A DNA stretch of 22,056 nt. Origin: a virus. Lineage: Duplodnaviria > Heunggongvirae > Uroviricota > Caudoviricetes. The DNA is taken from IMG/VR virus record IMGVR_UViG_3300006131_000005, one strand, 5' to 3'. Positions 1,883 through 18,200 of the stretch are shown here, piece after piece (position 1 is the stretch's first letter; every line of letters starts with the position of its first letter). The notes under the pieces were generated by a model, which did not search any database, was not told where the DNA came from, and saw nothing but the letters and a program-made list of their open reading frames with translations. The translations under genes were made by a program, and so were the position numbers.

Positions 1883-2206
1883 ATGGATACCAATTCGCTT
1901 GCCCACTACGGAATTCTCGGTATGAAGTGGGGCGTTCGACGGACACCGGAGCAGTTGGAGCGTGCCTCCATCAAGGCTCCTGGTAAGGAGCTGTCCGAAC
2001 TCAGCGACGCGGAAGTTCAGGCGCGTATCGACCGGATCAATCTGGAGCGGCGGTACAAAGACCTGACCAAGCCGGAGGCGCAGAAGAAATCCGCGCGGGG
2101 CAGGGAGTTCTGCGAAGACCTTTTGAAGGACATCGGCGGCAATGTGGTCAAAAATCTCGGCAAGCAGGTTTTGGACTACTACGAACAACAAGAGAGAGGA
2201 GGATGA
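1883..2206 (+). CDS. Small basic protein with HYGILGMKWGVRR leader (copy 1)
   Basis: ATG 1883 after AAAGGA (alternative ATG 1871; ORF track extends to 1736). Clear paralog of 2213..2674. Confidence 0.75.
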   Translation: MDTNSLAHYGILGMKWGVRRTPEQLERASIKAPGKELSELSDAEVQARIDRINLERRYKDLTKPEAQKKSARGREFCEDLLKDIGGNVVKNLGKQVLDYYEQQERGG

Positions 2207-2212
2207 TTCAAA

Positions 2213-2674
2213 ATGAGCGACATCGCTATCGCGCATCACGGTATCAAAGGGATGAAGTGGGGAATCCGCAGAACGCCCGAACAGCTTGCAAGAGCCTCTG
2301 GTCGCCCTGTTCCGGAATCCGGTGAAAGCCGATCCGGGCGCACTGCTCAGAAGAAGGCCGCTTCGGCGACCGCCAGCAAGAGGACGCTCAGCGACCTTTC
2401 CGATGATGAGCTTCGGCAGCGCATTAGCCGTCTGGAGCTTGAGAAGCGCTATAAGGACTTGGAAAAGGCCGACGCCAAACCGAAGTCCACCCGAGGAAGG
2501 GACTTCTGCGTCAACGTGTTGGAAACCATTGGCAAAAACACGCTGACCAACATCGGCACCCAGGCAGCCAACCATGTCCTTGGTGAAGCCATCAACAAAT
2601 TGGCCGGCGTCTCCTCGGATGACAAGGCCCATCGCGTTGTGAACCCGCAAAAGGGCCAGGAAGACAAGAAGTAG
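2213..2674 (+). CDS. Small basic protein with HHGIKGMKWGIRR leader (copy 2)
   Basis: Strong RBS GAGGAGG. Shares RTPEQL.RAS, LS.LSD.E...RI.R..LE.RYKDL.K and RGR.FC...L..IG.N with copy 1. Confidence 0.8.
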   Translation: MSDIAIAHHGIKGMKWGIRRTPEQLARASGRPVPESGESRSGRTAQKKAASATASKRTLSDLSDDELRQRISRLELEKRYKDLEKADAKPKSTRGRDFCVNVLETIGKNTLTNIGTQAANHVLGEAINKLAGVSSDDKAHRVVNPQKGQEDKK

Positions 2675-2684
2675 GTGTCCGCGC

Positions 2685-4430
2685 ATGTCTTTATCAAACA
2701 CCGCTGTTCCTAAATATTACGGCGCGTTTCGTGAGGCGGTTCTGCGCGGGGAAATCTTTGTCAACAAGGAAATATCCATGGAGATGAACCGGATCGACGC
2801 ACTGATTGCCGACCGAAGTTTCTACTATGACGATCAGGCTGTCGAAGGGTGGGTCAGATACTGTGAGTCCGAGCTTACCCTGACCGACGGCTCTGATCTC
2901 AACCTCTTGGACACTTTTAAGTTGTGGGGGGAACAAATTTTCGGTTGGTATTACTTCGTGGACCGGAGCGTCTATGAGCCTTATCCCGATGGTCATGGCG
3001 GACGGTATGTACGAAAGACCATCAAGAAGCGGTTGGTCAACAAGCAGTATCTAATCGTTGCCAGAGGCGCGGCCAAGTCGATGTATGCGTCCACGCTGCA
3101 AAGCTACTTCTTGAATGTGGACACCAGCACCACCCACCAGATCACTACAGCCCCGACCATGAAACAGGCGGAGGAGGTTCTTTCACCGATTCGCACCTCC
3201 ATTGTCCGCTCCCGCGGGCCGCTGTTCCAGTTCCTGACGGAGGGCTCCTTGCAGAACACCACCGGCTCCAAGGCAAACCGCATGAAGCTGGCCTCCACCA
3301 AGAAGGGCATTGAGAACTTCCTGACGGGGTCTCTGCTGGAGATTCGTCCCATGAGTATTGCCAAGCTCCAGGGGCTCCAGGTTAAGATCGCGACTGTGGA
3401 CGAGTGGCTCTCCGGCGACATCCGGGAGGATGTTATCGGTGCCATCGAGCAGGGCGCTTCCAAGGTGGATGACTACATCATTGTTGCCATCAGTTCGGAG
3501 GGCACCGTTCGGAACGGAGCTGGCGACACCATCAAAATGGAGCTCATGAAGATCCTGAAGGGTGAGTACATCGCGCCCCATACCTCTGTTTGGTGGTACA
3601 AGCTGGACTCTGTTGACGAGGTCGCAGACCCCGAGATGTGGATCAAGGCCAACCCGAACCTGGGTAAGACCGTCAGCTATGACACTTATCAGAAGGATGT
3701 GGAGCGGGCCGAGCAGGCCCCCGCCGCCCGGAACGATATTCTGGCGAAACGGTTCGGCCTCCCTATGGAGGGGTATACCTACTACTTCACCTATGAGGAA
3801 ACCCTGCCTCATCGCCGCCGAGACTTCTGGCAAATGCCCTGCGCCCTCGGCGCGGACCTGTCTCAGGGCGACGATTTCTGCGCGTTTACATTCCTATTCC
3901 CTCTACGCGGAGGCGCGTTCGGGGTAAAGACCCGAAATTATATTTCCTCGCTCACCTTGAAGAAGCTGCCTGCGGCCATGCGGATCAAGTACGATCAGTT
4001 TATGGCTGAGGGCAGTCTTATGGTTTTGGAAGGAACTGTCTTAGACCTGATGCAGGTCTATGAGGATCTGGACGATCACATTGTCCGATGCGGCTATGAC
4101 GTCCGGTGCCTCGGTTATGACCCCTACAACGCAAAAGAGTTTGTAGAGAGGTGGCAGTCGGAAAACGGACCTTTCGGAATTGAGAAAGTCATTCAGGGCG
4201 CAAAAACGGAATCCGTTCCCTTGGGTGAGCTGAAAAAGCTCTCAGAGGAGCGGATGCTTTTATTTGACGAGGAATTGATGACCTTTGCCATGGGAAACTG
4301 CATCGCAAGCGAAGACACCAATGGAAACCGGAAGCTGCTGAAGATGCGGCGTGAGCAGAAGATTGACGCCGTTGCGGCGATGATGGATGCTTACATCGCC
4401 TATAAGCACAACCGGGAAGCTTTTGAGTAA
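2685..4430 (+). CDS. terL: Terminase large subunit
   Basis: 581 aa; Walker A-like VARGAAKS, Walker B IATVDEW, RNase H-like nuclease motifs LGADLSQGDD and KIDAVAAMMDA; located upstream of the portal. Confidence 0.95.
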   Translation: MSLSNTAVPKYYGAFREAVLRGEIFVNKEISMEMNRIDALIADRSFYYDDQAVEGWVRYCESELTLTDGSDLNLLDTFKLWGEQIFGWYYFVDRSVYEPYPDGHGGRYVRKTIKKRLVNKQYLIVARGAAKSMYASTLQSYFLNVDTSTTHQITTAPTMKQAEEVLSPIRTSIVRSRGPLFQFLTEGSLQNTTGSKANRMKLASTKKGIENFLTGSLLEIRPMSIAKLQGLQVKIATVDEWLSGDIREDVIGAIEQGASKVDDYIIVAISSEGTVRNGAGDTIKMELMKILKGEYIAPHTSVWWYKLDSVDEVADPEMWIKANPNLGKTVSYDTYQKDVERAEQAPAARNDILAKRFGLPMEGYTYYFTYEETLPHRRRDFWQMPCALGADLSQGDDFCAFTFLFPLRGGAFGVKTRNYISSLTLKKLPAAMRIKYDQFMAEGSLMVLEGTVLDLMQVYEDLDDHIVRCGYDVRCLGYDPYNAKEFVERWQSENGPFGIEKVIQGAKTESVPLGELKKLSEERMLLFDEELMTFAMGNCIASEDTNGNRKLLKMRREQKIDAVAAMMDAYIAYKHNREAFE

Positions 4431-4443
4431 AGGAGGACAGTTC

Positions 4444-4947
4444 ATGGAGCAAGAACTCGCCCATTTCGGCATCAAGGGTATGCACTGGGGCGTCCGCAGG
4501 TTTCAGCAGCCTGACGGTACCCTTACCTCCGCCGGGAAGAAGCGGTACTCCGCCGACCGGAAGACGAAGCTGACGGAGAGCGTTGAGGCCAAGAAGGCCC
4601 ACGTTGACGCCATGCGGAAACAGGCCGGCGAGCGTATCCAATTCTATGGCGGAAAGAACGTTGCCACCAATGCTATCCAGCAAGAGGCCGCTTACAAGAA
4701 GAAGTCCACCACCGCCAAGACGGTCACGGTGGGCACGGTCATCGCTACCGGCGCGGCCTATGCTGCGGCAGCCGCCACACAGTCCCTTCCAGTTGTCGGC
4801 CTCTCTACAGCGGTCGTCGCGGCAGGAACCGCTTTCGTAACGTCGAGGAAGAACCAGAAAATTTCCGCAATCGCGGACGAGCAGATCGCCTACACCAAGG
4901 ACAGTGACTACGGCCCCGACGTTGTTGTGCGAAAGTCTCGGGACTGA
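4444..4947 (+). CDS. Third leader-bearing protein (HFGIKGMHWGVRR) with a hydrophobic C-terminal segment
   Basis: ATG 4444 after AAGGAGG (ORF track extends to 4387). Same leader as 1883 and 2213 but an unrelated body; Ala/Val/Gly/Thr-rich stretch TVTVGTVIATGAAYAAAAA...VVGLSTAVVAAGTAFV. Confidence 0.8.
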   Translation: MEQELAHFGIKGMHWGVRRFQQPDGTLTSAGKKRYSADRKTKLTESVEAKKAHVDAMRKQAGERIQFYGGKNVATNAIQQEAAYKKKSTTAKTVTVGTVIATGAAYAAAAATQSLPVVGLSTAVVAAGTAFVTSRKNQKISAIADEQIAYTKDSDYGPDVVVRKSRD

Positions 4948-4967
4948 GATAAGGAGGGAAGGAGCGC

Positions 4968-6242
4968 GTGGAAATCACCCTTGGCTCGCGATTGAAGCAC
5001 GCGTGGAACGCGTTCCTCAGCAGAGAGCCCACAAGCAGCTACTACCAGGGTCTCGGAAGAGGCTACTCCTATCGTCCTGACCGGCCCCGGCTGACCCGTG
5101 GAAACGAACGTTCCATCGTCACGTCGGTACTCAATCGAATCGCGTTGGATGCGGCGGCTATTAACATTCAGCATGTGAAGCTGGATGACAATGGCCGCTT
5201 TGTTTCTACTGTTGACAGCGGTCTGAACAACTGTCTGACTGTGGAGGCCAATATTGACCAGACGGCCAGAGCCTTCGTCCATGACGTGGTCATGTCCATG
5301 ATGGACGAGGGCTGCGTTGCTATTGTTCCGGTGGATACGACCTTGAACCCGAAAGTAACCGGGGCCTATGACATCGTGACCATGCGAGCCGGACAAGTCG
5401 TCGAGTGGTATCCGGCTCATGTGAAGGTCCGGGTCTACAATGACCAGCGCGGCGAAAAGGAAGATATTTTACTTCCCAAAAGCGTGGTTGGAATCGTGGA
5501 AAATCCGCTTTATGCGGTGATGAACGAACCCAACTCCACCCTACAGCGCCTGATCAGAAAACTTAATCTGTTGGACGCTGTCGACGAGCAGGCCGGTTCC
5601 GGCAAGCTCGACCTTATTATTCAGCTTCCCTACGTCATCAAGACGGAGGCGAGACGCGCCCAGGCGGAAAAGCGCCGCAAGGACATTGAGGAACAGTTGT
5701 CCGGTTCCAAGTACGGTATCGCTTATACCGATGGTACGGAGCATATCGTGCAGCTGAATCGTGCCGTTGAGAACAATCTGATGACCCAGATCGAGTATCT
5801 GACGAGTATGCTTTACAGCCAGTTAGGGATCACGAAAGGGGTTATGGACGGTTCTGCCGACGAGCAGACGATGCTGAACTACTACAACCGGACGATCGAG
5901 CCCATTCTCTCCGCCATCGTTGACGAGATGAAGCGCAAGTTCCTGACAAAAACTGCTCGGTCGCAGTTGCAGTCGATCTCGTTCTTCCGAGATCCCTTCA
6001 AACTCGTTCCGGCCGCCCAGCTTGCCGAAATCGCGGACAAGCTTACCCGAAATGAGGTCATGTCGTCCAATGAGATCCGGCAGGTCATCGGGTTGAAGCC
6101 GTCTAAGGACCCGAAGGCGGATGAGCTTCGCAACAAGAACCTCAGCGAGCCAACGGCAAAGGGAAAGGGCGCCGAAACCAAGCCCGAACAGACCATCACC
6201 ACATCGAAGGAGGAAAACAATCAAAATGAAGCATCCGTGTGA
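4968..6242 (+). CDS. Portal protein (HK97-family)
   Basis: 424 aa, GTG start after AAGGAGG/AAGGAG; between terL and protease; IVTSVLNRIALD, YYNRTIEPIL and MSSNEIRQVIGL are typical HK97-portal-like segments. Confidence 0.9.
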   Translation: MEITLGSRLKHAWNAFLSREPTSSYYQGLGRGYSYRPDRPRLTRGNERSIVTSVLNRIALDAAAINIQHVKLDDNGRFVSTVDSGLNNCLTVEANIDQTARAFVHDVVMSMMDEGCVAIVPVDTTLNPKVTGAYDIVTMRAGQVVEWYPAHVKVRVYNDQRGEKEDILLPKSVVGIVENPLYAVMNEPNSTLQRLIRKLNLLDAVDEQAGSGKLDLIIQLPYVIKTEARRAQAEKRRKDIEEQLSGSKYGIAYTDGTEHIVQLNRAVENNLMTQIEYLTSMLYSQLGITKGVMDGSADEQTMLNYYNRTIEPILSAIVDEMKRKFLTKTARSQLQSISFFRDPFKLVPAAQLAEIADKLTRNEVMSSNEIRQVIGLKPSKDPKADELRNKNLSEPTAKGKGAETKPEQTITTSKEENNQNEASV

Positions 6243-8103
6243 TTTCAGCGGTTGGGCAACCAGAGCTAACCTCAGATGCTCTGACGGCCTCACCATCATG
6301 AAAGGTGCGTTTGAGGACAATGACGGGAAGAAAGTCCCTCTTGTCTACAACCACCTCCACAACGATCCCAGCCTTGTTCTGGGACACGCCATCCTGGAGA
6401 AGCGGGATGAGGGCGTGTATGCCTACTGCTACTTCAACGACACCCCCAACGGCCAGATGATGAAGCAGGCGGTGCAGCACGGCGACATCGACGCTCTGTC
6501 TATCTTCGCCAACCAGCTCAAGAAGCAGGGCAATTTCGTTACCAACGGCAATATCCGAGAGCTGAGCCTTGTCCTGGCCGGGGCTAACCCCGGAGCGTTC
6601 ATCGACTCCATCATGGCTCATGGCGAGGAGAGCGATGAAGAGGCCATCATCTACACTGGTGAGCCGCTGTGCCTCGCTCATGCCGATGGCGGCAAGAAGG
6701 AGGAGCCTCCCAAGCAGGAACCCCCTGCCAAGAAGGAAGAGCCCGCGAAGCAGGAGCCTTCCGCCCAGGAGAAGTCCGAGGAGGACGAGACTGTCGGCGA
6801 TGTCTACAACACGCTGACCGATAAGCAGAAGCGGGTCGTAAACTACATGCTCGGCGGGGCCCTCATGCAGGGTGATGCCGCCGGCGACGAATCTGAAGGA
6901 GGAGACAATACTATGAAGCACAACGTTTTCGAGAAGGATGGGACCAACGATTCCGTCCTGATGCATTCCGAGACCCGGCGCGGTATCATCGCTCTGGCCA
7001 AGCAGAACAGCGTTGGCAGCCTGCGGACCGCTTTCGCCATCTATGCCGAGCAGGCCGCCGCTGACGGTGATGATGAACTGAAACATGGCATTGATGCGCT
7101 CCAGCACGGCATCGACAACATTGAGAGCCTGTTCCCCGACTATAAGGATCTGAAGCCCGGCGCCCCCGAGCTGCTCACCCGGGATCAGGGTTGGGTCAAT
7201 GTGGTCATCGACAAGGTGCACAAGACCCCCATCGGCCGTATTCGCACTCGTCAGATGGACGCCCGCAACGAGAATGCCCGCGGTCAGGGCTACCAGAAGG
7301 GCAAGCGTAAGACCCCCGCCGGTAATATGAAGTTGCTGAGCCGGACCACCGACCCCCAGACCGTGTACTGCATCGACGCGCTGCATCGTGATGATGTCAC
7401 GGACATCACCGACTTCGATGTGATCGAGTATCAGTACGGCGTGATGAAGCAGAACCTCTACGAGGAGGTCGCTATCGCTATCATGGTGGGCGACGGCCGC
7501 GAGGAGGGCACCGAGATGAAGATCTCCGAGTCCCATATCCGCTCCATCTGGAACGACGACGATCTCTACACCATCCACTATGACGTGGACGTCGCTGCCG
7601 CCAGGGCTGAGCTTCAGGGCTCCCGCACCGACATGAACTTCGGTGAGAACTTCATCTACGCCGAGGCCATCGTGGCCGCCGCCATGTACTCCCGCGAGAA
7701 GTACAAGGGCACCGGCACTCCCGATCTGTTCTGTACGCCTCATCTGCTGAATGTGATGCTGCTGGCTCGTGATCTGAACGGCCGGCGTATCTACGACTCC
7801 AAGACCGATCTGGCCGCCGCGCTGAACGTCAACGCAATCTATACCGCCGAGCAGTTCGAGGGCTTGGTCCGCACTGATGACGACGGCGTGAAGCACAAGC
7901 TTCTGGGCATCTTCGTCAATCTGAACGACTACACCGTGGGCTCCACCAAGGGCGGCGAGATCACCCGCTTCAATCAGTTCGATATCGACTTCAACCAGCA
8001 CAAGCTCCTGATCGAGACTCGCCTGTCCGGTGCTCTGAACAGGGTCTACTCTGCCATTGCGCTGGAGGAGCCGGTGAAGTCCGCTTCTGGTGCGGCTGCT
8101 TAA
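6226..8103 (+). CDS. Fused prohead protease (HK97/S78-like) - linker/scaffold - major capsid protein
   Basis: ATG 6226 after AAGGAGG (ORF track extends to 6121). N-terminal DFSGWAT...VPLVYNH...LSIFA...IRELSLV..GANPGA is a prohead protease pattern. Acidic/Pro/Lys linker follows. The C-terminus FNQFDIDFNQHKLLIETRLSGAL is an HK97-fold capsid-like end. Confidence 0.9.
   Translation: MKHPCDFSGWATRANLRCSDGLTIMKGAFEDNDGKKVPLVYNHLHNDPSLVLGHAILEKRDEGVYAYCYFNDTPNGQMMKQAVQHGDIDALSIFANQLKKQGNFVTNGNIRELSLVLAGANPGAFIDSIMAHGEESDEEAIIYTGEPLCLAHADGGKKEEPPKQEPPAKKEEPAKQEPSAQEKSEEDETVGDVYNTLTDKQKRVVNYMLGGALMQGDAAGDESEGGDNTMKHNVFEKDGTNDSVLMHSETRRGIIALAKQNSVGSLRTAFAIYAEQAAADGDDELKHGIDALQHGIDNIESLFPDYKDLKPGAPELLTRDQGWVNVVIDKVHKTPIGRIRTRQMDARNENARGQGYQKGKRKTPAGNMKLLSRTTDPQTVYCIDALHRDDVTDITDFDVIEYQYGVMKQNLYEEVAIAIMVGDGREEGTEMKISESHIRSIWNDDDLYTIHYDVDVAAARAELQGSRTDMNFGENFIYAEAIVAAAMYSREKYKGTGTPDLFCTPHLLNVMLLARDLNGRRIYDSKTDLAAALNVNAIYTAEQFEGLVRTDDDGVKHKLLGIFVNLNDYTVGSTKGGEITRFNQFDIDFNQHKLLIETRLSGALNRVYSAIALEEPVKSASGAAA
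6913..8103 (+). CDS. Predicted nested in-frame product: major capsid precursor from an internal start (396 aa)
   Basis: GAAGGAGGAGACAATACT-ATG at 6913 is in frame with 6226 and has an optimal RBS. Confidence 0.65.
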   Translation: MKHNVFEKDGTNDSVLMHSETRRGIIALAKQNSVGSLRTAFAIYAEQAAADGDDELKHGIDALQHGIDNIESLFPDYKDLKPGAPELLTRDQGWVNVVIDKVHKTPIGRIRTRQMDARNENARGQGYQKGKRKTPAGNMKLLSRTTDPQTVYCIDALHRDDVTDITDFDVIEYQYGVMKQNLYEEVAIAIMVGDGREEGTEMKISESHIRSIWNDDDLYTIHYDVDVAAARAELQGSRTDMNFGENFIYAEAIVAAAMYSREKYKGTGTPDLFCTPHLLNVMLLARDLNGRRIYDSKTDLAAALNVNAIYTAEQFEGLVRTDDDGVKHKLLGIFVNLNDYTVGSTKGGEITRFNQFDIDFNQHKLLIETRLSGALNRVYSAIALEEPVKSASGAAA

Positions 8104-8749: not shown

Positions 8750-9442
8750 ATGAGTAAAATCAAGTGGGACGAGACCGGTAAGCGTTATTACGAAACCGGT
8801 GTTGACCATGGCGTGCTGTACCCCATTGGCAGCAATGGCAAGTACGACAAGGGCGTGGCCTGGAACGGTCTGATCTCCGTTACCGAGGCCCCTTCCGGCG
8901 CGGAGCCCAATAACCTCTACGCTGACAACATCAAGTATCTGGTTCTGGTGGGCGCCGAGGACTTCGGCTATACCATCGAGGCCTATACCTACCCCGACGA
9001 GTGGGCCGCCTGCGACGGCTCCGCCGAGCCCGTCCTCGGCATGAGCATCGGCCAGCAGGCCCGCAAGATCTTCGGCCTTGTCCACCGCACCAAGCTGGGT
9101 AACGATACGGACGGGCAGGATCACGGCTATAAGCTGCATCTGCTCTACGGCGGTCTGGCCTCCCCCTCCGAGCGGGGCTATCAGACCGTCAATGACTCCC
9201 CCGAGGCCATCACCTTCAGTTGGGAAGTCACCACCACTCCTGTGGATGTTCCCGGCTTCAAGCCCACCGCCTGCGTCATCATCGACTCCACCAAGGTCGA
9301 CAGGGAGAAGCTGGCCGCGCTGGAAGAGATCTTGTACGGCAAAGACCCTGCTGCCGAGGGCGGCACCGACGGCACCGAGCCTCGCCTGCCTCTGCCCGCC
9401 GAGGTCATCGAGCTGCTCAAGGACGAGCCCGCTGCCGGCTGA
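8750..9442 (+). CDS. Major tail (tube) protein
   Basis: 230 aa; GVAWNGLISVTEAPSG, LYADNIKY, YKLHLLYG, FSWEVTT typical of siphophage tail tube proteins; RBS AAAGGAGG. Confidence 0.9.
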   Translation: MSKIKWDETGKRYYETGVDHGVLYPIGSNGKYDKGVAWNGLISVTEAPSGAEPNNLYADNIKYLVLVGAEDFGYTIEAYTYPDEWAACDGSAEPVLGMSIGQQARKIFGLVHRTKLGNDTDGQDHGYKLHLLYGGLASPSERGYQTVNDSPEAITFSWEVTTTPVDVPGFKPTACVIIDSTKVDREKLAALEEILYGKDPAAEGGTDGTEPRLPLPAEVIELLKDEPAAG

Positions 9443-9926: not shown

Positions 9927-10469
9927 ATGCTGGAAATATTCATTCGCGGCGGCGAATTCTTCGATCCTGGGAGCGGCACGTTTCTGCAAGTCAAGGATCA
10001 GACGCTCAAGTTGGAGCACTCTCTGGTCTCCCTTTCAAAATGGGAGTCGAAATGGCACAAGGCATTTTTGGGGAGGGAGCCGAAGACTCAGGAGGAGTCC
10101 ATTGATTATATCCGGTGTATGACACTGACCCAGAATGTGAACCCCGACGTCTACAAGGCCATTACGCCGCAGACCGAGAGAGAGGTATTCGCTTACATCA
10201 ATGCTCCTATGACCGCCACGACCTTTCCTCCGGACGACAAGAACCGGCCAAACCGGAAGATCGTCACGGCCGAGATCATCTACTACTGGATGATTTGCGA
10301 GAACATTCCGTTCGAGTGCCAGAAATGGCATCTGAACCGGCTGATGACCTTGATCAATGTCTGTCGAGCGGAGAACGCTCCCCGAAAGAAAATGAGCAAG
10401 AAAGAGATCATGGCGAGGAACCGGGCGCTCAACGCGTCCCGCCGCCGGAAAACACATTCGAGAGGGTGA
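9927..10469 (+). CDS. Probable second tail assembly protein (gpT-like position)
   Basis: 180 aa with its own RBS (GAGGGAG) after the chaperone; basic C-terminus. Positional call. Confidence 0.5.
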   Translation: MLEIFIRGGEFFDPGSGTFLQVKDQTLKLEHSLVSLSKWESKWHKAFLGREPKTQEESIDYIRCMTLTQNVNPDVYKAITPQTEREVFAYINAPMTATTFPPDDKNRPNRKIVTAEIIYYWMICENIPFECQKWHLNRLMTLINVCRAENAPRKKMSKKEIMARNRALNASRRRKTHSRG

Positions 10470-11830
10470 TTACAACGTCTCTGATTGGAACAACAACTGA
10501 GGAAAAAATCTGGAATTTCCTGAAATCCCAAGGTCTCTCGGATGTCGGTGTTTCCATTATTATGGGGCATGGTTTTGCCGAGAGCGGCCTTAAACCCGAC
10601 AATCTCCAGAACAGCTATGAGCGTAAGTTGGGCATGGCCGACGCTGAGTACACCGAAATGGTGGACAACGGCACCTATGCCAACTTTGCCCACGATAAGG
10701 CAGGCTATGGCCTATTCCAATGGACGTACTGGAGCCGGAAGGCGGCTCTGCTGGCCTATGCCAAATCCGCAGGGAAAAGTATTGGCGACCTGGAAATGCA
10801 GCTTGGCTTCTTGATGCAGGAATTGTCACAGGGCTATAAGGCATTGCTGGCGATGTTGAAGACCGCCACCAGTATCAGAAAAGCGTCAGATGCTTTTCTG
10901 CTCCAGTTTGAGCGCCCCGCCGATCAGAGCGAAACGGCCAAGGCCCGGCGGGCCAGCTACGGCCAGAAGTATTTCGACAAGTATGCTGGCAAGGCCAGTG
11001 GAAAGGAGACAACAGGTATGGGTTTCACGAACAGTTCTCTTGCTACGGTAAAGATGATCTCTCCGAACCGGACGCCCAATCGGAACCACGCCATCGACAC
11101 CATTACCATCCACTGCTTCGTCGGCCAAGTGACTGCCAAGCGAGGGTGCGAGGTGTTCCAGCCCAGCAGCAAGGGTGCGTCCTGCAACTATGTTGTAGGC
11201 TATGACGGCTCCATCGGCCTGTGCGTTGAGGAGAAGGACCGTAGCTGGTGTACCGGCGGCTACGACAAGAATAAACAGCCCATTCGGGTGAATGGAATCT
11301 CCGGCAAGTCCAACGACTACCAGGCCGTAACCATTGAGGTCGCCAGCGACAACACTCACCCCTACGCCATTACCGACAAGGCTATGGCCGCCCTGATCGA
11401 GCTGTGCGCCGACATCTGCCGGCGGAACGGTATCAAGAAGCTGGTGTGGAAGGGGGACAAGAAGCTGGTGGGCAAGGTGGACCAGCAGAATCTCACGGTC
11501 CACCGCTGGTTTGCCGACAAAGCCTGTCCCGGCGACTACATCTACCAACGGCTGCCTGATATCGCCGCTAAGGTGAACGCCAAGCTGGGGGGCTCTGGTG
11601 CGATCACAGCTCCCACCACCCCCGTGAGCAAGGTGCCGTACACTGTCCGCATCACCGCCACCAATCTGCGTATCCGTAAGGGCCCCGGCACCAATAACGC
11701 GATCGTCAGCGTCATTAAGCCCGGTGTCTACACTATCGTATCTGAGGCCACCGGCCAGGGTGCTACGCTCTGGGGCAAGCTGAAGTCTGGTCTCGGCTGG
11801 GTGTCCCTCGATTACTGCAAGAAGCTGTGA
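10466..11830 (+). CDS. Modular cell-wall hydrolase: phage-tail-lysozyme-like domain + Amidase_2-type amidase + SH3-like binding domain
   Basis: Start GTG 10466 (GTGA overlap with the upstream stop) or ACG 10475; the ORF-track start at 10115 adds a non-homologous overlap. IWNFLK...AESGL...GYGLFQWT...QL.FL..EL...FERP is phage lysozyme-like. TITIHC...VTIEVA...HRWFADKACPG gives the His/Glu/His/Cys pattern of Zn amidases. NLRIRKGPGT...WGKLKSGLGWVSLDY is SH3-like. Confidence 0.85.
   Translation: MITTSLIGTTTEEKIWNFLKSQGLSDVGVSIIMGHGFAESGLKPDNLQNSYERKLGMADAEYTEMVDNGTYANFAHDKAGYGLFQWTYWSRKAALLAYAKSAGKSIGDLEMQLGFLMQELSQGYKALLAMLKTATSIRKASDAFLLQFERPADQSETAKARRASYGQKYFDKYAGKASGKETTGMGFTNSSLATVKMISPNRTPNRNHAIDTITIHCFVGQVTAKRGCEVFQPSSKGASCNYVVGYDGSIGLCVEEKDRSWCTGGYDKNKQPIRVNGISGKSNDYQAVTIEVASDNTHPYAITDKAMAALIELCADICRRNGIKKLVWKGDKKLVGKVDQQNLTVHRWFADKACPGDYIYQRLPDIAAKVNAKLGGSGAITAPTTPVSKVPYTVRITATNLRIRKGPGTNNAIVSVIKPGVYTIVSEATGQGATLWGKLKSGLGWVSLDYCKKL
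11018..11830 (+). CDS. Predicted nested in-frame product: amidase + SH3 endolysin from an internal start
   Basis: GAAAGGAGACAACAGGT-ATG at 11018 is in frame and lies exactly at the lysozyme/amidase domain boundary. Confidence 0.65.
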   Translation: MGFTNSSLATVKMISPNRTPNRNHAIDTITIHCFVGQVTAKRGCEVFQPSSKGASCNYVVGYDGSIGLCVEEKDRSWCTGGYDKNKQPIRVNGISGKSNDYQAVTIEVASDNTHPYAITDKAMAALIELCADICRRNGIKKLVWKGDKKLVGKVDQQNLTVHRWFADKACPGDYIYQRLPDIAAKVNAKLGGSGAITAPTTPVSKVPYTVRITATNLRIRKGPGTNNAIVSVIKPGVYTIVSEATGQGATLWGKLKSGLGWVSLDYCKKL

Positions 11831-12277: not shown

Positions 12278-15200
12278 TTGAGCACAACGATTGATGAAAA
12301 AGTCGTAGAAATGCGATTTGACAACAAGCACTTCGAGACCAATGTTCAGACCAGCATCTCGACGCTCGACAAGCTCAAACAGAGTTTGGATTTGAACGGC
12401 GCCGCGAAAGGTCTGGAGAACATCGACAGCGCGGCCAAAAAATGCGATATGTCCACACTTGGCAAGTCTGTTGAGACTGTCAGGATGAAGTTCTCCGCGC
12501 TTGAGGTCATGGCTATGACCGCCCTCTCAAATATCACCAATTCCGCGATGAACGCGGGAAAGCGTCTGGCCTCTACGTTTACCGTGGAGCCGATCACCAC
12601 AGGTTTCAACGAGTACGAGCTAAAGATGGGCTCCATCCAGACCATCATGGCCGGCACCGGGGAAAGCCTGGAGCGGGTCAATCAGAAGCTGGATGAACTG
12701 AACCTTTACTCGGACAAGACCATCTATTCCTTTGCGGATATGACCCAGAACATCGGCAAGTTTACCAATGCCGGTGTAAAGCTGGATGACGCCGTGGCCG
12801 CCATTCAGGGCGTTGCCAACGTAGCGGCTGTCTCCGGCGCGAATGCCAATGAGGCGTCCAGGGCCATGTATAACTTTGGTCAGGCTCTTTCCGCCGGCTA
12901 CGTCAAGCTGATTGACTGGAAATCTATTGAGAACGCCAATATGGCAACGGTGGAGTTCAAGCAGCAGTTGATGGATACCGCCGTTGAGATGGGCACGCTG
13001 GTCAAGGTTGGCGAGAAGTATCAGTCAACCACAACAGACCTCAATGGTCATGTATCCGATCTCTTCAATTCCACCCTTCTGTTTAATGACTCGCTCAGTT
13101 CTCAGTGGATGACCACGGAAGTCCTATCCAAGACTCTTGCAAAGTACGCAGATGAAACCACCGAGATTGGTAAGAAAGCTTTTGCCGCCGCGCAGGACGT
13201 CAAGACTTTTACCCAGTTGATGGATACGCTGAAGGAAAGCGCTCAGTCCGGATGGGCGGAGACCTGGCAGATCGTTGTCGGCGACTTTGAGGAGGCCAAG
13301 AAGCTCTTTACTGAGATGTCCGAGTTCTTCGGCGCTATGATCTCCGATTCCGCAAAGGCGAGAAATGAGCTTCTCTCCAGCGCATTGGGTTCTGGCTGGT
13401 CAAGCTTTCTGAAGGAAGGCATCGGGGACGCCGTTGGCTTCAAGGAGAGCATTGTGAACGCGGCCAGGGCTCATGGCGTCGCTATCGAAGAGATCGCCTC
13501 CAAAACAGAAAAGTTTGAGGACAGCCTGAACCAGGGATGGCTCAGCGCTGATATTCTGTCTGATGCTTTGGCCGATCTGACAAAGAAGACGGCTGGTCTG
13601 TCTGATGCAGAATTGGCGAACATCGGGATGACCCGCGACCAGGTTGACGACCTGGAGAAGCTGAACCAGGCGATCAAGGACGGCTCCGTCAATCTGGAAG
13701 AATACGCCAATAAGATCGGAAGAATGTCCGGTCGTGAGAACCTGATTCAGTCGTTCCGTAACGTTTTGCAGGCTCTGTTTGCTGTTCCGAAAGAAGCCGG
13801 AGACCTGATCGGCGTTATTACCGTCATCCGGGATGCGTTTCGGGAGATCTTCCCACCGGCAACCTCTGAGCAGGTCTATGCGCTGACTGAGGGTCTTCGC
13901 AATCTCACCGAGAAACTCAAAATGAGCGAGGAGACCGCCGATAAGCTGAAGCGCACTTGCAAGGGGTTATTTGCTATCGTGGACATCTTTACCACCTTGA
14001 CCGGCGGCGCTCTGAAGGCAGCCATTAAGGTGGCGGCAAAACTGCTTGGCATGGTTGATGTGGATATTCTCGACATCACAGCCAACGTCGGCGATGCTAT
14101 CGTAGCCTTCCGTGATTGGATCGACCAGCATAATTTCCTGGCAAAGGGCATCGAGAAAGCCCTCCCCTACATCGAGTCTGGGATCAAGGCCCTTCGGAGC
14201 TGGATTGCCAGACTTGGCGAACTCCCTCTTGTTCAGAAGGCAATCTCCCGGTTTGGAAATGCATTCCGGGATGTTTCCGATAGATTCGGCGTCTACATGG
14301 AGGGTGGAATTGAGCGCATCAAGGCGTTCATTGAACGTGTGAAGGCTATGAACGGGCTTACCCTTGATAATATTGGGAAAGCCCTGGCCGATTTCCGCGA
14401 TAATGTGCTCAGCTACTTCCTGAACTTCGGCGGCATCTTCGATGGGCTTATTCAGGCGGTGAAAGATTTTGGCTCGGATGTCAAGCTGGCGTTTGAGCAG
14501 CTTACGGGCGGGGCCGAAAACGCGAAAGCCAAGATGAAGACCACAGTCGGCGGCATCATTCAGTTCTTCCTGAACATGAAGGACCGGATCTTTGCCATCG
14601 CGCTGGAGATTCGGGAGAAGCTGGCGGACAAGATCGGTTTCGGCGAAATCTTTGCACTTGGTCTCGGCGCTGCTATGGTGGCGTTCACCAAGAAAATTTC
14701 CGACGCGCTTGAGACGATCTCCGCGCCCTTTGAGGGCATCGGCGCTCTGCTGAAGAGTGCGTCCAAGGCGCTGAATGCTTTTGCCATGGAGACAAAGTCT
14801 AAGGCCCTGCTCAATGTCGCCGAGGCTATCGCGGTGCTCGTTGGAGCGTTGGCGGTACTGACGCTGCTAGATCAGGAAAAGCTTAAGGGTTCTCTGGTCG
14901 TTCTTGGCGTGCTCGCCGCTGGACTTCTGGCGGTTTCCTTCGCCATGAGCAAGATGGGCGACCCGAAAGAACTGGTCAAGCTGTCTACCTCTATTGTCGC
15001 CGTCGGCGCGAGCTTGCTTCTGCTGGCAAACGCGATGAAGACGCTGGAGAGCCTGAATGGGGATAAGGTCGGCGGGAGTCTGGCGATTCTTGGCGTTCTG
15101 GCCGCAGGGCTGGTGGCAGTATCGAAGCTGCTCAGCTCCAAGGATAAGACTTTCTCCAAGAGCTCTCTTTTCATGATTGGCTTTGCGCTTTCGCTGAAGC

Positions 15201-18200
15201 TTCTCGTGAGCGCTCTGAAAGACCTTGACAAAATGGAGATCAGCAACGCCGGACAGACCCTGACGCTTCTACTTGGCGCGGTGGCGTCTCTCGCGTTGAT
15301 CGCGACGGCCTGCAAGGGTGTCAAGTTTGGCGCAGCCGCCACGATTCTGGCAATCGTTGTTTCGCTGAAACTCCTGGTAGGCTGCTTCAAGGACATCGCC
15401 AAACTCGACGTTGGAAAAGCGAAGAGCAGCATGGGCACCTTCGCTGGTATCTTTACCATGTTCGGTGCTCTGATGGTCGCCAGCAAATTCTCCGGCGAGA
15501 ACGCGAGCAAAGCGGGTTCCGCAATTCTGAAGATGGCGGCCTCGCTGATCCTTATCACTACAGCATTCAAAATGATGGCGGGAATCGACCCGCTGGATCT
15601 TGACCGGGCAACAGATACCGTCAGCAAACTGCTCCTGGTCTTCTCCGCTGTCACAGCTGCATCCCATTTCGCGGGAAAGAATGCGAGTAAGGCCGGATCT
15701 ATGCTTCTGCTGATGTCCGGCGCGATCCTGATCCTCTCCACTACGATGGTTGTACTGGCCCATCTTGATCCAAGTGGTCTGGGCCGGGCACTTGGAGCAA
15801 TCACCACACTCCTGGTCGTCTTTGGAGCTATGGTCGGCATCACCTATTTTGCAAAGGATTCCTCGCAGATTCAGGGCACGTTGATCACCATGACCATTGC
15901 TATATCCGCCATGGTGGCGGCAGTCGCGGCATTGAGCCTTCTGGACCCGCAGCGGCTTCTGGGGGCAACGGCCGCGATCAGTACCCTTGTGGCGGTGTTC
16001 TCCCTGTTAGTGGCGTCTACCCACTTCGCAAAGAAGGCGGGAAGCGTACTGGTCGTTATGACTGGCGTTGTAGCCGGTCTCGCCGGTATCCTCGCTTTGA
16101 TGTCCGCGTTCAATGTGCAGAACTCGGTCACTAACGCCTCCGCACTCTCTATCCTGCTGACGTCGCTGTCGGCGTCTCTGCTGATCCTCAGCAAAGCAAG
16201 CACGATTGCCCCGACAGCCTATGCCGCCATTGGTATCATGACTGCTGTGGTCGCCGGCCTTGCCGCTATCCTCGGTATTATGGACGGGCTCGGTGTCAGC
16301 GCATCTATCGAGACGGCGGCATCGTTGTCTGTCCTGCTTCTGTCCATGTCCGGGGCCTGCCTGATTCTGGCCGGAGTAGGCGCAACAGGTCCCGCCGCCT
16401 TTATTGGCATCGGTGCTCTGGCAACACTGATTGCCGGGCTCGGCGCTATCATGGCGGCTATCTGTGCTCTGACCGCTGACAATCCGACCATCGAGCAAGA
16501 CCTCGACCGGGCGATCATGATTCTGGAGAAGATCGGCACCGGCCTTGGGGCGACCATTGGCGGCTTTGTTGGTGGCGCTATCGGAGGGCTGAGCTCCGGG
16601 CTTCCTATCATCGGTACAAATCTGTCCGGGTTCATGACAAATGCCCAGCCCTTCTTCGACGCCGTTAAGGGCGTTGATGGGGAGGCTATGGCTGGCGTCA
16701 AATCTCTGGCCGAGGCATTGCTGGTTCTGACCGGTGTGAACGTGGTCGAAGGGCTCACCTCCTGGTTGACTGGTGGTACTTCTTTGGCGGACTTTGGCGA
16801 TGAGCTGATCGCTTTCGCGCCCAAGTTCAAGGAGTATTCTCAGTTGATGGAGGGAATCAATCCTGAAGTCATCGACGCCTCTGCAAACGCGGCCAAGACC
16901 CTTGCCGAGTTTGCCAGCGCCATTCCAAACCAAGGCGGTTTGCTTGCTGATCTGATCGGCGACAACACGCTGAGCACCTTTGCGGAAGAGCTTGTCCCAT
17001 TTGGGGAGAGCTTTTCAAAATACGCCCAATCCATCGACGGCATCAACGCGGAAACCGTGACTGCTTCGGCGAACGCGGCTAAATCGCTTGCTGAGTTTGC
17101 CAGCGCTATTCCCAATCAGGGCGGCATGTTGGCGGATTTGATGGGTGACAATACTCTGAGTTCCTTTGCCAAAGAGCTGGCTCTGTTCGGGCCTTCGCTG
17201 AAGTCCTATGCGGACAGTGTGACCGGCCTGGAGCCCTCTGTGGTGGAGAATTCCGCCAATGCGGCGAAGTCTCTTGCTGAGATGGCAAACTCCCTGCCGA
17301 ACAGTGGCGGCATCCTGGCTGAGTGGATGGGTGACAATACCCTGAGTTCCTTTGCGGCTGAGTTGGATCGTTTCGGCCCGGCTATCATGCAGTACGCCAA
17401 CAGCGTCACCGGCCTTCCGGTGGACGTGATCGAGGCATCCGTCTCCGCCGCAGGCGCGTTGTCTGCGCTGGCCGAGGGCCTTCCTAATCAGGGCGGTCTT
17501 GCCGCATGGTTCGGCGGAGATAACACCCTTGCCACCTTTGGAGAAGATTTGATCTCCTTTGGCAACAACCTGAGTGCATATTCCACGGCGATCAGCGACA
17601 TGAAACCCGATGCTGTAGTCGCATCCGCCAATGCTGCAAAGGCCCTCTCCAATCTGGCGGAAGGGCTCCCGGACAGCAGTCTGTTCGACCAGTGGTTCGG
17701 CGGGGATCAAACTCTTGCCTCATTTGGCGGCGACATTGCGGCGTTCGGCGAGGCCATGAGCAACTACTACGCCGCTATCTCCGGGATCGACATTCCGAAG
17801 ATGGAGGGGGTTGTGACCGCTGTCTGGAGTCTCGTTGATTTGGCGAAGGGTGTCAAAGAGATCGACAAGAACGCATTTTCCAATTTCAGCACCTCCCTTA
17901 GCACCCTGGCGAGCACTGGGGTCACCGGGTTTACCAACGCGTTCTACAACTGTGACAGCGAGGTCACATCGGCGGTAGTCGGTATGCTGAACAAAGTCGG
18001 TTCTGCCATTACCGCCAACTCCTCCATTCCCAGTAGTTCCATGCAGACCGTAGTCACATCCCTGGTAGAGGTCGTCAAGACCAAGACTTCGGATGTCGAA
18101 ACTGCAACCGCCTCCATGATGACCGCGATGCGGGCCAAAATCTCGTCCTACAGCGTCGTCATCAAGACGGCTATGGGGAGCGTGGTTTCCGCCGCTGTCA

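Follow-up and report, generated by a model that had tools for sequence, protein, structure and literature searches.

A putative histidine-specific maturation code in the protease-capsid fusion protein of a phage lineage

The prohead protease and the major capsid protein of a tailed virus (Duplodnaviria; Heunggongvirae; Uroviricota; Caudoviricetes) are encoded as a single in-frame fusion, 6226..8103, in IMG/VR virus record IMGVR_UViG_3300006131_000005, whose whole stretch of 22,056 nucleotides is here termed the window. Every histidine between the two folded parts of the fusion protein has Leu or Met two residues upstream, and this motif, L-x-H for short, is kept in relatives whose linkers can otherwise no longer be aligned. 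Judged from sequence and predicted folds, it is fairly likely that the motif is a His-specific maturation code in the linker and that the mature capsid protein starts at GIDNIE, the most likely form of the cleavage consensus being [LIMV]-x-H↓[SAGND]-[DE]. The motif, its conservation and placement, the fold boundaries, an internal translation start signal and the co-occurrence of the fusion gene with a family of tagged small proteins are direct observations. (Residues before a putative bond are numbered P1, P2 and P3 backwards from it, those after it P1′ onwards; a slash marks the putative bond within a motif.)

The L-x-H motif of the linker

The main parts of the fusion gene and the six sites are as follows, residues being numbered from ATG 6226; pLDDT is the predicted local distance difference test score of the structural model described below.

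6226..8103, + strand: prohead protease (S78)-linker-HK97-fold major capsid protein fusion, 625 amino acids (PF04586, phrog_3270)
6226..6618, + strand: protease domain, residues 1-131, with H43, S92, D20 and E112 invariant in 57 diverse relatives
6613..6621, + strand: site 1, M-A-H(132)/G-E, directly past the last strand of the protease fold; proposed release site
6673..6681, + strand: site 2, L-A-H(152)/A-D, in disordered acidic linker (pLDDT <50)
6793..6876, + strand: conserved helical hairpin in the linker, residues 190-217 (helices 190-196 and 199-217, pLDDT ~85)
6913..6921, + strand: site 3, M-K-H(232)/N-V-F, start of a predicted short product; possibly also cut in the long product
6958..6966, + strand: site 4, L-M-H(247)/S-E, at the entry of a helical delta-like segment
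7078..7086, + strand: site 5, L-K-H(287)/G-I-D, a tandem copy of site 6
7099..7107, + strand: site 6, L-Q-H(294)/G-I-D-N-I-E-S-L-F-P-D, proposed final maturation cut
7108..8100, + strand: predicted mature major capsid protein, residues 295-625 (331 amino acids), of which model residues 293-618 align with mature capsid structures

A preliminary description of this DNA had drawn attention to the six histidines and to Leu or Met at -2 of each, and translation of 6226-8103 bears it out. They stand at residues 132, 152, 232, 247, 287 and 294, in the contexts IMAH/G, CLAH/A, TMKH/N, VLMH/S, ELKH/G and ALQH/G, and the stretch from where the protease fold ends to the capsid fold has no other histidine. 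The positions it gave (6613, 6673, 6913, 6958, 7078 and 7099) are correctly the first base of each P3 codon, and the tandem near the linker end, LKHGID-ALQHGID, is likewise as described. Leu, Ile or Met at -2 of all six was reproduced in 0 of 200,000 shuffles of the 176-residue stretch; with L+M making up 8.5% of that stretch and L+I+M 14.2%, the chance probability is ~4e-7 to 8e-6. Elsewhere in the window the motif occurs at about its expected rate.

Across 120 close homologues (64-99% identity) the L-x-H islands are kept within a Pro/Lys/Glu-rich linker that otherwise varies freely. They are kept also at 35-42% identity, in phages of Rhodococcus, Gordonia, Arthrobacter, Streptomyces, Lactococcus and Faecalibacterium, six host genera that span two phyla, where the rest of the linker is unalignable. 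For counting, 150 representatives of clusters at <=50% identity were taken, and the 96 with both anchor motifs (ANPGA and LFP[DE], below) were used. Their linkers hold 663 histidines, about 7 each, and the residue at -2 is L in 288, I in 137, M in 82, V in 61 and F in 24, together 592 of the 663 (89%), compared with a background of 19% for L/I/M/V. Histidines of the capsid domain show no such enrichment (18% vs 24.5%). A scan of every gapped residue pair in the linkers, meant to remove the post-hoc choice of motif, put L.H first (z = 42), ahead of H.D (19), I.H (16) and M.H (16), and brought up no other conserved candidate motif. The logo of the sites reads [DE][DE][DE]-x-[EV]-[LIM]-x-H-[SAG]-[DE], with a small P1′ residue (S/A/G/N/D) in 84-88%. 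Loss of [LIM]xH from homologous linkers had been named beforehand as a finding that would count against a code; what is found is its strong conservation.

The nearest S78 protease outside the family, that of Corynebacterium phage IME1320_01 (28% identity, encoded by a stand-alone gene), has an equally acidic tail with zero His, so the L-x-H code does not simply come with an acidic linker. Both the region and the motif were chosen after the data had been seen, and to that extent a functionless pattern, due to chance or phylogenetic inertia, might be suspected. It is, however, contradicted by the shuffle test, by the unbiased pair scan and by conservation in unalignable linkers of two phyla, and can be set aside almost completely.

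Placement of the sites at fold boundaries

A profile search with the fusion protein matched PF04586 (Peptidase S78) with 26.7 bits against a curated cut-off of 21 (E 6.9e-6) and phrog_3270 with E 9e-208, and PHROG head maturation protease families were matched too. H43 and S92 are the likely catalytic residues of the protease domain, being equated by motif position, not by structural superposition, with His65 and Ser114 of the HK97 protease.

An AlphaFold2 model of the fusion protein, built on an alignment of the 57 diverse relatives, has a mean pLDDT of 80. The score is above 90 through residue 131 and then falls to below 50, the fall coming exactly at His132. Residues 132-229 are, in the model, an acidic and mostly disordered linker, and residues 230-294 appear to be a short helical segment of delta- or scaffold-like character, with three helices at moderate confidence (residues 249-294) ahead of the capsid fold. 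The capsid part has pLDDT >85 over residues 305-620. Its HK97 fold is apparent from VIA-align comparisons of model residues 293-618 with capsids of HK97, a gene transfer agent, T5, D3 and actinophages (Z 15-17.6). In these alignments (Z 15-17) HK97 Head I residues 104-383 are matched to model residues 295-617, and T5 residue 165 to model residue 293. HK97 Ser104, the known mature N-terminus of that capsid protein, thus falls on residue 295, right after His294, and therefore the last L-x-H marks the position of the HK97 cut. The preliminary description had proposed a mature capsid protein starting near GIDNIESLFPD; as to position this stands, since it is the structural equivalent of the HK97 mature N-terminus, and the cut itself would be expected there. 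A PDB sequence search with the fusion protein found no match, hence no solved structure of the family showing the mature N-terminus. All six sites lie in low-confidence segments of the model or at helix ends.

The sites differ in how strictly they are kept. At site 1 His is present in 57/57 of the diverse relatives, P3 is I/L/M/V/F in 57/57 and P1′ is G/S/A/D; the first L-x-H comes 7-8 residues past the ANPGA anchor in 91 of the 96 relatives counted. His132 was considered as a third catalytic residue and rejected, because it is the first low-confidence residue past the fold and its counterpart is missing from the nearest outside-family protease, the tail of which is without His. Site 2 has His in 50/57 and L/I/V/M at P3 in 54/57; site 4 has His in 51/57 and L/I at P3 in 54/57. 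Site 5 is found in 19/57, always with His where present. An L-x-H precedes the LFP[DE] anchor in 96/96, and the last one stands 8-33 residues before it in 95/96. In the aligned column of residue 294 itself His is found in 23/57 and Tyr in 27/57, and where it is Tyr an L-x-H lies a few residues upstream. The last site thus moves but is never lost, as expected of a required short motif.

Motifs that fit the code occur also within the protease fold, VLGH54/A (6376-6387, residues 51-54) and VQH85/G-D (6472-6486, residues 83-87), and in the latter G86 and D87 are nearly invariant.

Two probable products from one gene

One of the six sites coincides with a translation start. The signal is:

6895..6915, + strand: internal start, GAAGGAGGAG followed after 8 nt by ATG(6913), with a GGAGG core at 6898-6902, 10 nt before the ATG

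The region before ATG 6913 nearly copies the initiation region of the fusion gene itself. Seven distant phages have ATG at the aligned codon, or else TTG (Lactococcus phage) or GTG (FP_oengus), all with an upstream Shine-Dalgarno-like sequence. ATG, GTG or TTG is present at this codon in 80 of 82 related loci. The median energy of the Shine-Dalgarno duplex across these loci is -11.6 kcal/mol, which ranks among the top 0.5% of in-frame positions within the gene. The peptide encoded over the Shine-Dalgarno varies (EGG, KGG, KEED, SEEE) while the GGAGG bases are kept, and so selection is on the RNA and not on the protein.

The fusion gene therefore probably yields, as read from these initiation signals, both the full fusion (ATG 6226) and a protease-less delta-capsid precursor (ATG 6913), the latter predicted to have 396 amino acids and to begin MKHNVFE. 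The MKH at 6913, counted as a cleavage site in the preliminary description, is thus mainly a conserved start codon with its own Shine-Dalgarno, and its His is kept in 65%; a cut there in the long product is still possible. Public annotations examined treat the protease-capsid gene as encoding a single fusion protein.

The hairpin of residues 190-217 is exclusive to the long product because it is located upstream of the internal start. It has a conserved block, TV.DV...M...QK.VV..A..G.A, across relatives, and may be a targeting or assembly element of the protease-bearing form.

Proposed maturation pathway and its alternatives

The long and short products would co-assemble through their common capsid part, which would bring the protease inside the prohead. 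There it would cut after His within [L/I/M/V]-x-H↓[S/A/G/N/D]-[D/E] motifs. The first cut, after His132, would free the protease domain, the middle cuts would shred the linker and the delta segment, and the last, after His294, would leave a 331-residue mature capsid protein starting at Gly295.

Several points tell against this scheme. We infer from the pattern that proteolysis takes place and at which bond, and likewise that cargo is loaded and processed. Site 3 has M in 51/57 relatives but His in only 37/57 (65%), with Q, R, K or Y in the remainder. The LxH-like LGH54/A and VQH85/G-D inside the folded protease domain would need protection or else be sites of self-destruction. The homologues share ancestry and the counts made on them are not independent, a concern which floating and lineage-specific extra sites lessen but do not remove.

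The islands might also serve without being cut, as docking or assembly motifs for the capsid interior, a protease exosite or a metal ion, in which case the real cuts would fall at other places or follow a different specificity. Short motifs repeated along a disordered and acidic linker are likewise typical of multivalent binding, and the same motif opens the DUF7211 tag considered below, which resembles an address label. However, the linker is already covalently joined to the capsid protein, which makes a docking motif needless; two sites have fixed places, at the boundary of the protease fold and at the maturation point equivalent to that of HK97; the combination of an aliphatic P3 and a specific P1 fits T4 L/I-x-E and herpesvirus V/L-x-A↓S; and the all-pairs scan left the linker with no other candidate motif to be cut in its place. 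Such a docking role is unlikely. Smaller still is the chance that the motif is the recognition site with the bond lying one or two residues further on, so that His would be P2 or P3. The bond cannot be placed from sequence alone, and the rank of H.D as the second strongest gapped pair (z = 19) means that the prime side is constrained too. Against such a shift, HK97 Ser104 aligns to the residue next to His294, though with a tolerance of a few residues, the invariant residue is P1 in T4, phiKZ and herpesviruses, and the tags resemble the linker sites only on the non-prime side. Cleavage directly after His is the reading retained in what follows.

DUF7211-tagged small proteins

Upstream of the fusion gene are three small genes and the portal gene, each of which has the motif close to the N-terminus of its product.

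1883..2206, + strand: sp1, DUF7211-tagged (PF23847 E 1.2e-10, 41.1 bits); Shine-Dalgarno and ATG 1883; L-A-H at 1898-1906
2213..2674, + strand: sp2, DUF7211-tagged paralogue of sp1 (PF23847 E 3.9e-8, 33.0 bits); Shine-Dalgarno and ATG 2213; I-A-H at 2228-2236
4444..4947, + strand: sp3, DUF7211-tagged (PF23847 E 5.5e-10, 38.9 bits); Shine-Dalgarno and ATG 4444; L-A-H at 4456-4464
4968..6242, + strand: portal protein (PF04860, phrog_12), GTG start 4968; L-K-H at 4992-5000

The small proteins begin MDTNSLAH/YG (1883), MSDIAIAH/HG (2213) and MEQELAH/FG (4444), so that the L/I-x-H reported near their N-termini is confirmed, each start having its Shine-Dalgarno. All three exceed the curated cut-off of 27 bits for PF23847 (DUF7211). 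The preliminary description had the motif directly preceding a conserved leader; the His is indeed present, but the leader proves to be the Pfam family DUF7211, a tag in which the His is invariant and P1′ is aromatic. To our knowledge Pfam assigns DUF7211 no function, and literature searches on DUF7211 found no paper mentioning the family.

All 114 non-redundant tags have the His, and 111 of them have Leu at -2. Acidic or polar residues occupy P4-P6, as at the linker sites, and the leader, counted from Met to His, mostly has 6-11 residues. Internal second tags at module junctions, in Gordonia phage Secretariat gp15, Arthrobacter phage Circum gp7 and phage 1706 orf7, keep the upstream D-x-L-A-H. 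Tag and linker sites are alike only on the non-prime side, up to the His. On this comparison the tag appears to share the non-prime side of the linker code, and the link of DUF7211 to a protease code is new.

The tag is tightly coupled to the protease-capsid family in both directions. A random sample of 300 genomes of the same class gave no DUF7211 hit and is uninformative on co-occurrence, for which seeded searches in both directions were used instead. Tag-seeded contigs with at least 6 kb downstream have the fusion gene in 26 of 27 cases, and of 90 fusion-seeded loci that extend 9 kb or more upstream, 71 have a strict tag. Of the 10 tag hits in five bacterial genomes, 9 are within ~6 kb upstream of the fusion gene. 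One contig, L240, which has tags and no fusion gene, was rejected as a counterexample: its portal gene is truncated and followed by unrelated genes, which points to a probable rearrangement of the contig. The complete genome of Clostridiales bacterium CCNA10 has a fourth DUF7211 hit (G001:C1:319682-319729) that lies beyond the usual 6-kb neighbourhood, ~43 kb away from the fusion gene, and that may belong to a second phage-derived region.

The sp1-3 proteins would be a cargo set, found almost only with the protease-capsid family, and their 6-11-residue leader would probably be trimmed by the same protease, less certainly than the linker is cut. The bodies of the tagged proteins are not enriched in LxH (15.8% vs 18.1%), so that only the tag would be cut, and the idea that they are polyproteins cut at many LxH was rejected, there being no enrichment outside the tags.

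Whether the code extends to the tagged proteins is a matter of roughly even chances. It is nearly as probable as not that the linker code is real while the L-x-H of the DUF7211 tags and of the portal is unrelated and unprocessed, part of a binding peptide or an N-terminal helix. Weighing on that side is P1′, aromatic (Y/H/F/W) in 110 of 114 tags, and R/K in phage 1706, compared with small in the linkers. The tag is moreover one homologous family, in which L-x-H is a single evolutionary event and may be shared with the linker by coincidence, for which we roughly estimate a low probability. On the other side, Leu is kept at -2 in nearly all tags though it lies upstream of the Gly/Trp core, the residues at P4-P6 have the character of those at linker sites, the internal tags retain the upstream context, and the tags are coupled to the same protease family. 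A single His code with two uses, by which the capsid-tethered protease would shred its own linker, capture DUF7211 cargo through a substrate-like tag and then trim that tag, is rather unlikely in this full form. A complex prediction for the protease domain (A1 residues 1-135) with a tag (A2 residues 1-45) gave 'no answer' (score 0.02) and is neutral on binding.

The two-tag orf7 of phage 1706 is listed as a structural protein in GenBank record EU081845; this is annotation only, and it supports a virion location and is silent on processing. The protein (L088 2501-3889) has its tags at residues 34 and 183, with R and K at P1′, and three linker-type sites (LAH/S, ILH/S and GLH/E) near residues 310-340, and looks like a small polyprotein. 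One tag subtype (L039, L055 and others) has a second L-x-H right behind the tag (GVRRTPEQLGH); at that position sp1 has RRTPEQLERAS and sp2 RRTPEQLARAS, with no His. The C-terminal half of sp3 is hydrophobic; the protein has a long hydrophobic stretch rich in Ala/Gly/Val/Thr and a weak, sub-threshold match to SLATT_1 (E 0.004), and may be a membrane-active cargo.

The portal N-terminus

The L-K-H reported at the portal N-terminus is there (GSRLKH/AWNAF), behind a start with a Shine-Dalgarno, and the motif sRLKH/AWNAF is conserved among relatives. Its inclusion in the code holds less well: the His is replaced by N, S, Q, R, K or A in ~16 of 58 relatives, about a quarter, which speaks against processing here and for the motif being unrelated to the linker code. 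Trimming of the portal N-terminus is possible but doubtful, and a cut there would be at best optional.

Gene order and lineage

The window, with a guanine plus cytosine content of ~55%, represents the head and tail module of a siphophage or prophage. Its other features are:

524-1009: HNH endonuclease
1513-1866: small virion protein, phrog_4247
2685..4430, + strand: terminase large subunit (PF20441, phrog_9)
between the fusion gene and the major tail protein: connector proteins
8750-9442: major tail protein
10115-11830: endolysin-like gene
12278-20521: open reading frame of 2,747 amino acids in the position of the tape-measure gene (identity by position)

A single open reading frame of 2,747 amino acids (12278-20521) is unusually long for a phage of such a size class. 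The endolysin/amidase-like gene sits within the tail block, between tail genes and the giant open reading frame, and relatives have a glycoside hydrolase or LysB gene in its place.

The nearest relatives occur as prophages in Oscillospiraceae, Lachnospiraceae and other Clostridia. Lactococcus phage 1706 and its relatives belong to the same lineage, as do Faecalibacterium phage FP_oengus and >200 phages of Arthrobacter, Gordonia, Streptomyces, Rhodococcus, Curtobacterium and Microbacterium in which the protein is annotated 'major capsid and protease fusion protein'. This trans-phylum lineage has been described by Koert et al. (bioRxiv 10.1101/842583).

Relation to known maturation systems and significance

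Literature searches found no prohead protease described with P1 = His, in agreement with what the preliminary description had said. Known prohead proteases have Glu (T4, phiKZ, SPN3US), Lys (HK97) or Ala (herpesviruses) at P1. It is P1 = His that would be the new element of the code; an aliphatic P3 with one specific P1 is a shape already known elsewhere. T4 gp21 cuts at L/I-x-E↓ sites, many of which shred the scaffold while one trims the capsid protein, and the packaged internal proteins IPI-III have short N-terminal leaders. The fusion family resembles it in the aliphatic P3 and single specific P1, in the many sites, in the proposed capsid trim and in the short leaders on putative internal proteins, but in T4 P1 is Glu, and the protease is the product of a separate gene and of another peptidase family. 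The comparison with the T4 leaders, drawn in the preliminary description, is imperfect: short leaders are common to both, but the T4 targeting sequence is upstream of the cut and is removed, whereas here the tag is downstream of the His and would stay.

HK97 gp4/gp5 has a protease of the same Pfam family (S78), the same capsid fold and a delta domain removed at the point aligned to residue 295. The HK97 cut is Lys103↓Ser104, so that P1 is Lys, the protease is encoded by a separate gene, and we know of no L-x-H code described for HK97. In herpesvirus assemblin UL26/UL26.5, where release and maturation take place at (V/L/I)-x-A↓S, an in-frame fusion joins the protease to an assembly protein, a nested 3′-coterminal product lacks the protease, the release site is at the end of the protease fold, and P3 is aliphatic. 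There, however, P1 is Ala, the protease is joined to a scaffold instead of the capsid protein, the virus is a eukaryotic one, and the nested product is made from a promoter of its own where an internal Shine-Dalgarno is present here. Lambda C/Nu3 also combines protease and scaffold functions in one frame with an internal start, and the two-product layout of the fusion gene resembles both it and UL26/UL26.5. The proteases of lambda C/Nu3 and of the Gifsy-2 ClpP-scaffold-capsid gene are of ClpP/S49 type, not S78, and both systems are without an L-x-H code and without DUF7211 cargo. In giant phages phiKZ gp175 and SPN3US gp245 process many head and ejection proteins at an A/S/G-x-E motif (PMC10052503). 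Several copies of the motif occur within propeptides, as here (PMC10052503), but P1 is Glu, and in these jumbo myoviruses protease and capsid protein are unfused.

The conserved internal start would recast the usual 'capsid and protease fusion' annotation as that of a two-product gene. If the reading is true, a family cutting after His would extend the protease fold by a new P1 class. The prediction names the mature capsid N-terminus in each phage. Family members are on record from >240 phages, including Lactococcus phage 1706 and many SEA-PHAGES isolates, many of them in culture. The shared L-x-H would tie the widespread, unexplained DUF7211 tag to a specific enzyme and offer a handle on swappable head-protein loading in the lineage. 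Were one code to serve both uses, a 20-residue tag and one fused gene would constitute a portable head-loading system across Actinobacteria and Firmicutes.

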